Positions 3,301 through 6,300 of a stretch of 64,000 nt of DNA are shown here, piece by piece. The stretch is from contig NIVC01000807.1 of the NCBI GenBank assembly GCA_002269645.1, positions 306,781 through 370,780 on the forward strand, written 5' to 3'. Both the position numbers and the translations under genes were made by a program. The notes under the pieces are model-generated. The model ran no database searches. It was not told the DNA's origin and was given only the letters and a program-made list of their open reading frames with translations. How positions within the stretch are numbered: position 1 is the first letter of the stretch; the number at the start of each line of letters is the position of its first letter. The stretch is from Macrostomum lignano (lineage: Eukaryota).

Positions 3301-6300
3301 ATATTTCATCCATCGGGCTCTGCACATCCTGCGCGCCTTCCCGCCGGACACTCGCCTGCCAGACGGCACCCCGTTCTGGTCGCCGCCGAAGCGGCCGCCG
3401 CGTCCCGTAGCTTTGAACGCCAACGAGCCGCTGCACGTCAGCTGTTTGCTCAGCTTAGCCAGGCTCTATGCTGGTGCCTTCTGTGTACCAATACCAGCTG
3501 GCAGCGACTCGGCCGGGTTTGTTGCCGCCATGCTGCCTAGCATCACACTGCCAGAGTTTGTGCCCAGCACTAAACCAATTGAAACTGACGAGTCCAAGAG
3601 TCGGGCCGACGCTACGGCCGATTCTACAGCCGGTTCGAATGCCGACCCAGAGGCTGTGCTGGCACTGTTCTCTAGTCTGGCTGAGCCGCTCACCTGTCAG
3701 CCTGTTCAGTTTGATAAGGACAATGATAGCCATGTTGACGCTGTGGCCTCCCTGGCTAATCTGCGTGCCACCATGTACGGCCTGGATACTGTGGACCGGC
3801 TGCAGGTTGGATTCGCTGTCTCTTCTATTGCACTGGCTTCCACTCCAGTCATTCCTTTCCACTGGCGTCCACTCCAGTCATTCCTTTGCACTGGCTCTCC
3901 AGTCATTCCTTTGCACTGGCTCTCCAGTCATTCCTTTGCACTGGCTCTCCAGTCATTCATTTACACTGGCTTCCACTCCAGTCATTCATTTACACTGGCT
4001 TCCACTCCAGTCATTACTTTCCACTGGCTTCCACTCCAGTCATTCCTTTGCACTGGCTCTCCAGTCATTCCTTTGCACTGGCTCTCCAGTCATTCATTTA
4101 CACTACTAAGCAACGGCAGATGGCTCGATTTTGCGAAGGTCCGTCGGGCTGATGTCGGCCTCTAGCACCGCGGCAAGGTGCTCCCTCGGGGTGTACCACC
4201 TCCCCCGGGGTGTACCTCCAGCGGGGTGGGTGTCCAGCGAGTGTACCTCCAGCGGGGTGGGCCTCCCGCGAGTGTACATCCGGCCGGCTGGGCGTCCAGC
4301 GAGTGTACCTTCAGCGCATGGGCCTCCCTCGGGGTGTACATCCGGCGGGGGGATTCCCGCCCCTCCCACCAATGTCGTGTGCACGCGGTTAGTGTAGGAA
4401 GGAAACCCCCGATGCTGACGCAGCCCTGTACACTGAGCAACCGGCCCCCCATGCGGGGGACAGAGAGCAGCCCTGTAGCTGGGGACAGAGAGCAGCCCCT
4501 GTAGCAGGAGGGGTAGTGCGTGGAGAGCCGCCATCCCCCTGTAGCAGGGGACAGATAACAGGCGACCCCTGTAGCAGTATGAGGTGGGGTACAAAGAGAC
4601 ACGGGGTGCTGGGACAGAGAGTGCGTGGAGGCACCCTGCGCTGCCCCGGCATGTCGCAGCACGCGGCGTGGACAGAGAGGGAGTGTGAGTCACACGGAGG
4701 GACAGAGAGCTTCCCCAGGCCGGGGTGGTAGAGGGACAGACCGGCGGTGAGTGATAGAGAGCCCCCCCCCAGGCTGCAGAGGGACAGACAGGCCGCGAGC
4801 AACGTGTTAATGCAACCATAAATAGAAGCAGTGTACAAAACCCTCTGTATGGAGAACATGGAAGAGGGTATAACTGATAACCCCTATTTCAGCAACGAGA
4901 GCGTGCGCGCCAGATTACCCCTCATTGAAAGATTGTTATCAGACACTAGGAAAAGAATCGAGGGATTGACCGCAAAGGAGCGCTTAGAATTCACGTATCT
5001 AGCCCGGCTGGCATTCGTAACTGAAGTAAACATTGAGGAGAGAGAGGTGGCGTTGACTTGGGAGGAAGCAGAAGAAGCGATAAAAACCGGGTCCTGTATG
5101 GTCACAGCCAATCTATGGAGTGCGGCAATACACCTCAATGACACGAGGGGGTTAATTGACACAGAGTTTGTTAGACAAGTTCACACACGCGTGTGTAGAG
5201 GACTGCTCCCGAATGCAGGATCGTATAGAATTAAGCACGCCAAGCCAGCAGGCGCGAGTATGTATTACAGTGCCCCAGAAAATATTGAACGGCAGCTGGT
5301 AAAATTAACTAGAGACATAAAAGAGCCACAAATCTTGCGTGATGCAGTAGTGACAGGAGCATATTTCCTAGAAAAGTTTCTCACCATACACCCCTTTAGC
5401 GACGGCAATGGTAGAACTGCTAGGTTGTTATTATCAAAGTTGATCAACCGGATTCTGCCAGAACCCGTATCATTTGCGTATGCAAATAGAGACACATATC
5501 TCAACTGTCTTTACGAAGCGCGCAGCAGCAACCGGGGGCTCCTAGCGGCGTATTTACTTTTATCAATTGAGAGAACCGTTCTACAGTGGAGGGAATGGTT
5601 GGAAATCTGTTCAGACGGCAGCCTATAAATAAATAAAATTGGTATTTCTCAACAATATCGAAATGTACTGGCAATCGGAAATAGTGTACACCCACGTTGA
5701 CAACGCAGTGCTGGAAGTGGGATATTGGGACCCAAACAAGCCGCGTTTCCGCATCCACTGTCAAAACTGTAGCTGTCCAGGAGCCGTGTTTAGTCGAGCA
5801 CAATGGCATCGAATGAAATTTCTGGGCACTAGCTGCACAGATTACGATCTCGGAGGCGGCGCATCTATCAAAGTTATCGACGGGAAGCGCCTGTACGTAA
5901 AAGGAGACTGCGAATTTCACCTGTCAGACAAAATACTTTGTGCAGTTGAAAAGAATAGAGTCGACAATTTCTTCCACTATTTCTTTCTCGACGAATCTGA
6001 CGAGTCAGAGGAATGAGCTGGATTTCTCGAGACTACCCGCTTTTATCGAGCAAAGAAAGGGCAGAGTACGAGACCCTGAAAAAGTCCACAGACTGGTTAT
6101 GCATTTGTCACGGCAAACCAATTCCCGAACGATTAGTCACCTTTAATGTCGAGGTAGACGAAATTGGGCAAGGGCCTTACAGCACCCAAGAATATACAGA
6201 TGCCCGAATTGACTACTACTTTAGAGACAAGATGCATTTCAAAGCCAATCTTCAAAGAATGGAGCAGATAATTGCCCCAATATTACAAGAGGATCATCGT

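Follow-up and report, generated by a model that had tools for sequence, protein, structure and literature searches.

The flatworm Macrostomum lignano carries a virus-like mobile element whose first gene encodes a protein of the Fic family, and this locus raises the question of whether such an enzyme is an unrestrained toxin of foreign origin or a regulated switch related to proteins of the host itself. The element lies in a stretch of 64,000 nucleotides (assembly GCA_002269645.1, contig NIVC01000807.1, positions 306,781 to 370,780; hereafter the window, whose own numbering is used throughout), and it represents one subfamily, A, of polymerase-less Polinton-type elements. The initial annotation, made from the letters of the window, had proposed a catalytically intact AMP transferase that was horizontally acquired and possibly constitutively active. 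The explanation that we consider the best overall, with about an even chance of being correct as a whole, is that one Polinton subfamily borrowed a self-braked Fic of host type and that selection has kept it there.

The element encodes a soluble class II Fic protein

The Fic gene is an intronless open reading frame (ORF) of 259 aa that matches the Pfam Fic family (PF02661; E 6.7e-14, with a score of 52.9 bits where 24 is the threshold), and its ATG lies 80 nt interior to the left terminal inverted repeat (TIR) of the element (Table 1). All of the canonical signature residues were present, as had been reported initially, and in the available text of PMC3667792 the motif HxFx(D/E)GNGRxxR is tied to adenylylation competence. 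No transmembrane segment or signal peptide was found (the highest hydropathy over 19 residues was 1.03) and a Pfam search gave no match to tetratricopeptide repeats (TPRs), which bears out the earlier statement that the protein lacks the transmembrane and TPR regions of host FICD. An AlphaFold model (pLDDT 95.2) had the Fic fold and superposed on FICD (4u0u) from residue 17 onward, with 236 aligned residues, Z 26.4 and a root-mean-square deviation of 2.6. Sequence and model together mark the encoded protein as a soluble Fic of class II; its catalytic signature is intact, and the protein is very likely to be active as an enzyme. It shares with the known class II enzymes (human FICD/HYPE, Caenorhabditis elegans FIC-1, Shewanella SoFic and Coxiella CbFic2) the fold (Z 21-26), the signature and an inhibitory helix ending in glutamate, but differs from them in having neither transmembrane segment nor TPRs, in not keeping the S/T and G/N residues that flank the inhibitory glutamate, in falling outside a clade with FICD and in being borne by a mobile element.

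The inhibitory glutamate is retained

The inhibitory motif had been described as degenerate. This holds for its flanks, as the literal pattern (S/T)xxxE(G/N) is missing and Glu64 is flanked by V60 and R65, but not for the glutamate itself, which is present. In an alignment of family members built without canonical Fics, the column of E64 contained glutamate in 105 of 108 rows, and the literal S/TxxxE(G/N) occurred in merely 13 of these rows compared with 123 of 124 canonical rows (scored with a stricter form); thus, degenerate flanks are normal for the family to which the element Fic belongs. Profile-profile alignment with hhalign placed E64 without gaps onto the inhibitory glutamate of host FICD (probability 99.8), and in the AlphaFold model the helix formed by residues 42-63 immediately precedes it. 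VbhT, NmFic and EcFicT could be superposed only from about residue 66-83 of the element Fic, compared with residue 17 for FICD.

The glutamate of the inhibitory motif is described in the available text of PMC3667792 as the crucial residue for Fic inhibition, and in that of PMC6408439 a conserved glutamate is proposed as the signature of bifunctionality in AMPylation and deAMPylation. It is quite probable that Glu64 would act both as a brake on AMP transfer and as a residue for deAMPylation, a prediction made from the alignments and the model. The retention of Glu64, its position on the FICD glutamate and the role given to this residue in PMC3667792 together make a constitutive toxin unlikely. 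Our reading is that the element Fic is a captured class II enzyme, probably a bifunctional (de)AMPylase, which the element retains as accessory cargo.

The nearest relative is a spliced host gene other than FICD

Relatives were searched among 1.84 billion protein representatives, and the rows of the trees were chosen from the matches. After the protein itself, the top matches were P0022 (47% identity, E 5e-41) and P0023 (41%, E 9e-40), the next having E 5e-23. P0022 is PAA92674.1, a 'hypothetical protein' of the same flatworm, encoded at three homologous loci of the genome, G000:C458:68444-75040 among them; it is 43-47% identical to the element Fic over the full length. Its gene contains a GT-AG intron of 5,619 nt, and the junction of exons 1 and 2 was read in contigs of three of four sequencing runs that we guessed to be RNA, none of which is recorded as such. 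No element genes or tips were found within 40 kb around this gene, and FICD is a separate gene present at three other loci of the same genome. P0022 has the same soluble architecture and glutamate as the element Fic, but differs in its intron, its ordinary host gene neighbours, an adjacent second Fic paralogue and a longer C-terminal tail. That paralogue (G000:C458:76610-77596), in tandem with the spliced gene and covered by run contigs, is among the loci (with C3124:79814-80551 and C173:662178-662492) of two more host Fic lineages outside FICD, both of which have variant signatures.

The element Fic formed a clade with P0022, P0023 and P0076 in trees of 75, 28, 35 and 14 rows, with support from 100/96 to 100/100; in the 75-row tree, the 28-row tree and one further tree it was represented by its annotated allele P0001, which is one residue off the Fic of the window. 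A truncated capture of FICD was considered and rejected: grouping with FICD gave p 1.96e-95 in the approximately unbiased (AU) test on the 28-row tree, and the protein is without transmembrane segment or TPR. The phylogenetic comparison with FICD called for by the initial annotation thus came out against a recent truncated capture of the host enzyme. In the 14-row tree two beetle proteins, P0134 and P0108 (Ignelater luminosus and Popillia japonica), fell in the clade that is sister to the flatworm group (96/96).

Viral proteins appeared further out. In the 35-row tree the wider clade included L125, a Fic on a 93-kb viral contig with giant-virus-type neighbours, and its sister clade contained the viral-contig Fics L126, L127 and L192. 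The best viral fold matches, under their BFVD names, were wsv406 of white spot syndrome virus (WSSV) and a nudivirus FIC-like protein; from length alone, L127 would be wsv406. Like the element Fic, wsv406 and the FIC-like protein of Oryctes rhinoceros nudivirus are stand-alone Fics of eukaryotic DNA viruses, and wsv406 is also 259 aa long, but they are only 22-25% identical to it and belong to large viruses, not Polintons. Pattern-limited scans of IMG/VR (with single-sequence patterns), JGI metagenomes and prokaryote genomes yielded no close relatives; one profile search drifted to canonical bacterial Fics and so named no family members. On these trees and searches, the lineage of the element Fic is eukaryote- and virus-associated and stands apart from FICD and from the sampled bacterial class II proteins. 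The foreign, toxin-like origin implied by the initial annotation is not borne out by a nearest relative that is a spliced non-FICD host gene, nor by the pattern-limited prokaryote scan.

Fic is conserved among sister copies

A genome search with the element Fic gave 69 matches among 78 candidates, 17 of them full length, of which 16 were 97-100% identical, and full-length sister copies of the whole element were found at 97-99.6% identity. Nineteen copies were mapped; a matching 6-bp target site duplication (TSD) of their own was present in 11 of the 14 in which both ends were read. There were 16 distinct left flanks, so that some of the 19 copies are duplicates of one insertion. Presence of the gene in sister copies, a check proposed initially, was established, with Fic intact in 16/19. 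E64 was kept at 28 of the 30 loci examined, the other two being frameshifted or truncated there, and the signature at 29 of 30.

Over the 19 copies Fic showed 34 synonymous and 31 non-synonymous variants, none of the latter in E64 or the signature. The ratio of non-synonymous to synonymous polymorphism (pN/pS) was 0.27-0.40, depending on the transition bias assumed, and the synonymous excess was significant (p 2e-7 to 2e-4). Selection on the element thus conserves Fic, albeit with less stringency than the capsid gene, for which pN/pS was 0.05; purifying selection was also detected on ORF2, the gene that follows Fic. Decayed fragments of Fic plus ORF2, about 75% identical to the element and repeated several times, were found at G000:C40, C1500 and C2311; at C40 and C1500, the 20 kb examined contained no further element genes. 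With their divergence of about 25%, these fragments show that the cassette predates the recent burst.

A sibling subfamily lacks Fic and ORF2

Elements of subfamily B have the same gene order as those of subfamily A, with a capsid protein 88% identical and DNA identity of about 75%, but Fic and ORF2 were both missing from all seven B copies examined; the description of Fic as non-core cargo of a Polinton-type element is upheld by this comparison. The 37 Pfam Fic matches in the genome were all assigned, 26 to A copies and 11 to host loci, and so no other Polinton of the same genome carries Fic. A gain of Fic in subfamily A would be the simpler reading of this distribution. The slot in B that matches the Fic and ORF2 region of A holds an internally deleted duplicate of ORF3 (G000:C384:442291-443500).

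A 35-nt stretch at the end of Fic resembles sequence just inside the left TIR of subfamily B (Table 1). No Fic remnant was found upstream of this match in B, and stop codons overlapping the TATA box of the next gene are recurrent in the element, so that the match leaves the direction of the change unfixed. No gene lies upstream of Fic within the element, and the downstream ORF2 had no match in Pfam, PHROGs or the Atlas; its single-sequence fold had a pLDDT of 39.6, and its look is, we presume, PC4-like. The element Fic lacks the intron of the host gene, as capture through mRNA would give; alternatively, the intron may have been gained after domestication of a viral gene. Fast-evolving genes of the element differ by 40-60% between A and B, and the 57% divergence of Fic from the host gene is thus compatible with capture near the A/B split. 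On these comparisons we lean slightly towards a transfer from host to element via mRNA.

Organisation of the element and a polymerase in trans

The element is inserted in a 29-bp minisatellite inside an intron of a gene for ubiquitin-activating E1 (E1 domains recognised by Pfam), and its features are collected in Table 1. It has the rve integrase, capsid, adenain-type protease, packaging ATPase, long TIRs and 6-bp TSD that are described for Polintons/Mavericks (adintoviruses) in the available text of PMC8502044. It differs from them in carrying Fic and in having no protein-primed type B DNA polymerase (pPolB) in cis, the longest ORF being 427 aa and no polymerase match being obtained by Pfam and an ORF scan, a point on which the initial annotation was silent; its ends read ACTAC, compared with AGTAGT in two pPolB-bearing Polintons of the same genome. 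The capsid protein had no sequence match in the PDB and ORF4 had no Atlas match. Two genes of the virion module are labelled from position and motif: 9979-11109, which we take to be the penton, and 11153-11497, which we take to encode a pX-like protein. The putative penton has the highest pN/pS in the element (0.57) and 40-46% identity between A and B, as expected of a surface protein under diversifying pressure.

Table 1. Features of the element in the window. Positions count from the first letter of the window.
Feature	Position	Strand	Remarks
Whole element, subfamily A	4102..14642	+	10,541 bp; capsid/integrase segment, polymerase-less, Polinton-type
TSD, ATTTAC	4096..4101 (left); 14643-14648 (right)		6 bp
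Left TIR	4102..4768	+	starts ACTACTA; first 31 nt from a variant pool common to pPolB-bearing elements
TATA-like box ahead of Fic	4817..4825	+	putative promoter; like boxes precede other element genes
Fic gene	4849..5628	+	intronless 259-aa ORF; class II architecture; without transmembrane segment, signal peptide or TPR
Glu64 codon	5038..5040	+	predicted inhibitory/deAMPylation glutamate, end of helix 42-63
Fic signature, His181 to Arg192	5389..5424	+	residues 181-192 fit HxFx(D/E)GNGRxxR
35-nt stretch	5608..5642	+	last Fic codons, stop and ORF2 TATA box; 83% identical to sequence just inside subfamily B left TIR
ORF2	5663..6016	+	117 aa; no family match; accompanies Fic in subfamily A, not in B
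Four ORFs common to subfamily B	6013-6528, 6617-7297, 7736-8125, 8128-8754	+	weak homologues of the final two occur in pPolB-bearing Polintons
Retroviral-type integrase	8887..9966	+	Pfam rve, E 1.7e-9; 33-35% identical to integrases of pPolB-bearing Polintons of the same genome
Virion module	9979..13908	+	capsid, protease and ATPase homologous to proteins of pPolB-bearing Polintons of the same genome
Major capsid protein	11527-12810	+	homologue in pPolB-bearing Polintons
Adenain-type protease	12807-13244	+	homologue in pPolB-bearing Polintons; weak Pfam C48 match
Packaging ATPase	13279-13908	+	homologue in pPolB-bearing Polintons; weak Pfam AAA match
Right TIR	14003..14642	-	TIR pair: 667 columns, 95.8%

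Polintons that lack polB and are nevertheless mobile are described in butterflies in the available text of 10.1101/2025.02.07.637071. Of 91 pPolB loci scored in the flatworm, 20 were fetched and 10 showed an end: six ends were of the A tip class, three of which matched A tips at all 31 nt, and four were of the B class. There was no capsid match in the 10-kb stretches fetched for these pPolB loci, and one complete element of 9.7 kb had TIRs, a TSD and pPolB with no integrase or capsid match. Separate pPolB-bearing elements that share its ends probably provide the replication of the Fic carrier in trans, and a polymerase-less carrier together with tip-sharing pPolB elements fits a two-segment Polinton, as far as end sequences and gene content can tell.

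The 31-nt tips (4102-4132 and 14612-14642 in the window) vary in a modular fashion, with 16 variants among the A ends on bodies that are about 99% identical, and the same variant often stands at both ends of one copy. Three A-type tips were letter-identical on pPolB-bearing elements, and a second tip class is common to subfamily B and other pPolB elements. This pattern suggests two paired segment systems in which tips would be swapped or copy-corrected as the elements replicate. Further elements bounded by TIRs of the A type are non-coding or filled with junk (G000:C56:643539-661962 and C135:106311-115587). No polymerase was found in these or others of their kind, which contain repeats or retroelement pieces instead, and the C56 and C135 elements are probably non-autonomous passengers of the same system.

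Discussion

The retained braking glutamate, together with a nearest relative that is a spliced non-FICD host gene, makes a regulated switch of host type likely rather than an always-on toxin. On the explanation offered here, one Polinton subfamily would have taken Fic from the non-FICD Fic family of its host lineage, and the active element would transcribe a soluble, self-restrained enzyme from its first promoter. Glu64 would brake AMP transfer and allow AMP removal, so that the enzyme would remove, or conditionally add, AMP on a cytosolic or nuclear host protein of the kind targeted by the host paralogue. Selection would then keep Fic, likely because AMP marks on a host protein are reset while the element is active. 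That the element Fic modulates the target class of the host paralogue is a tentative proposal, to which we give a little less than an even chance; the flap region is similar in the two proteins. In the available text of PMC10628234 a Coxiella class II Fic modifies host histone H3 in both directions, which is a precedent and not evidence for the target here. A bolder version, which we think unlikely, holds that the soluble non-FICD proteins with flatworm, beetle and large-DNA-virus relatives are a second animal Fic family forming an undescribed cytosolic or nuclear AMPylation switch, and that the captured member, probably as a deAMPylase or decoy, reverses a host AMP mark that restricts the element. 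If true, it would make the element the first Polinton with a counter-defence that works through AMPylation.

Several observations weigh against this account. The pairing of the element Fic with the host gene had support of 31/10 in one tree and was not the best grouping in others, and AU tests on the order within the four-member clade gave p 0.33 and 0.49; with the order of the quartet undecided, the trees do not show the direction of transfer, and P0023 and P0076 may come from cells or from viruses. The element Fic and the host gene parted long ago, their identity being 43%. GC content at third codon positions (GC3) in the host gene is 0.49-0.51, close to the 0.49 of the element, compared with 0.68 in one host exon, and a viral origin of the host gene would also fit this element-like composition. 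One HMMER alignment shifted the FICD glutamate by 1-2 columns from E64. Variants present in at least two copies (12 synonymous and 14 non-synonymous) gave a weaker signal of selection (p 0.007-0.07). Finally, transcript of the element Fic is inseparable from DNA carry-over in the four guessed-RNA runs: contigs covered the whole element fairly evenly, including the TIR edge and intergenic gaps, and since about 30 genomic copies could yield such depth from trace DNA, this coverage weighs neither way on Fic expression.

The direction of transfer is where a different history has most to say. DNA viruses that infect invertebrates and protists might share a circulating Fic family, from which the element would have obtained its copy through another virus, while the worm gene would be a domesticated viral gene that later gained its intron; the biochemistry, a braked class II enzyme, would be the same. 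The giant-virus-type contig of L125 in the wider clade, the viral Fics of its sister clade and the fold matches to wsv406 and the nudivirus protein would suit such a course, as would the element-like GC3 of the host non-FICD Fic genes and the position of the element Fic outside the host gene, P0023 and P0076 in three trees (with weak support). We nevertheless consider it somewhat unlikely, as three Fic lineages other than FICD are found in chromosomal context in the host, no other Polinton of the genome carries Fic, the viral Fics are far off (paths of at least 2.8 to their nearest rows, while the host gene and the element Fic are about 1.5 apart) and the pattern-limited scans of IMG/VR returned no close viral relative.

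Readings that retain a toxin fare less well. Fic could belong to a conditional toxin or addiction cassette, silenced by its own glutamate or by ORF2 and toxic upon loss of the element or infection by a rival virus, to the benefit of carriers. Fic and ORF2 are present jointly in A and missing jointly from B, their linkage persists in decayed fragments diverged by about 25%, and both are under purifying selection; in the available texts, switching-on is described for class II Fic enzymes (PMC10628234) and cargo for Polintons (10.1101/2025.02.07.637071). Such a cassette is still improbable, since searches of Pfam, PHROGs and the Atlas matched ORF2 to no antitoxin family, an enzyme inhibited internally needs no antitoxin and the host tolerates dozens of element copies whose Fic is intact. 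The constitutively active AMPylase toxin entertained initially would accord with the perfect signature and the loss of the literal S/T and G/N flanks, but becomes very improbable with E64 in 105/108 relatives and at 28/30 loci of the same genome and with that glutamate being crucial for inhibition in the available text of PMC3667792. That Fic is neutral passenger DNA without function, for which its pN/pS above the 0.05 of the capsid might speak, is scarcely credible given the significant synonymous excess, the gene's own TATA-like box and the fact that, despite 57% divergence from the host gene, Fic has lost neither its full length nor any catalytic residue.

Returning to the borrowed, self-braked Fic, several of its parts are already known, namely annotated Fic genes in large eukaryotic DNA viruses, Polinton cargo and the enzyme class. 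The literature searched (supplements and subscription journals were outside its coverage, as was Repbase) held, among the papers listed, no report of Fic or of AMPylation in a Polinton or of Macrostomum Polintons/Mavericks, nor, within the same limits on supplements and journals, a study of Fic from eukaryotic viruses or of a second family of animal Fic proteins. The term 'Fic' had no matches in the main texts of PMC8502044, PMC6474068 and PMC8557903, whose supplementary gene tables could list one. Most metazoans have a single functional fic allele according to the available text of PMC8097203; alongside FICD, this one genome contains three more lineages of Fic, one of them spliced and expressed, and a mobile element conserves a sister of the latter in dozens of copies. 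The host enzyme and its element-borne counterpart form a testable pair for AMPylation targets outside the endoplasmic reticulum in an animal and for the roles of Polinton accessory genes, with the Fic-less subfamily B as a natural comparison. The finding is less dramatic than a constitutive toxin, yet it brings to light, in an animal, a soluble AMPylation system that is so far uncharacterised, together with its counterpart on a mobile element.
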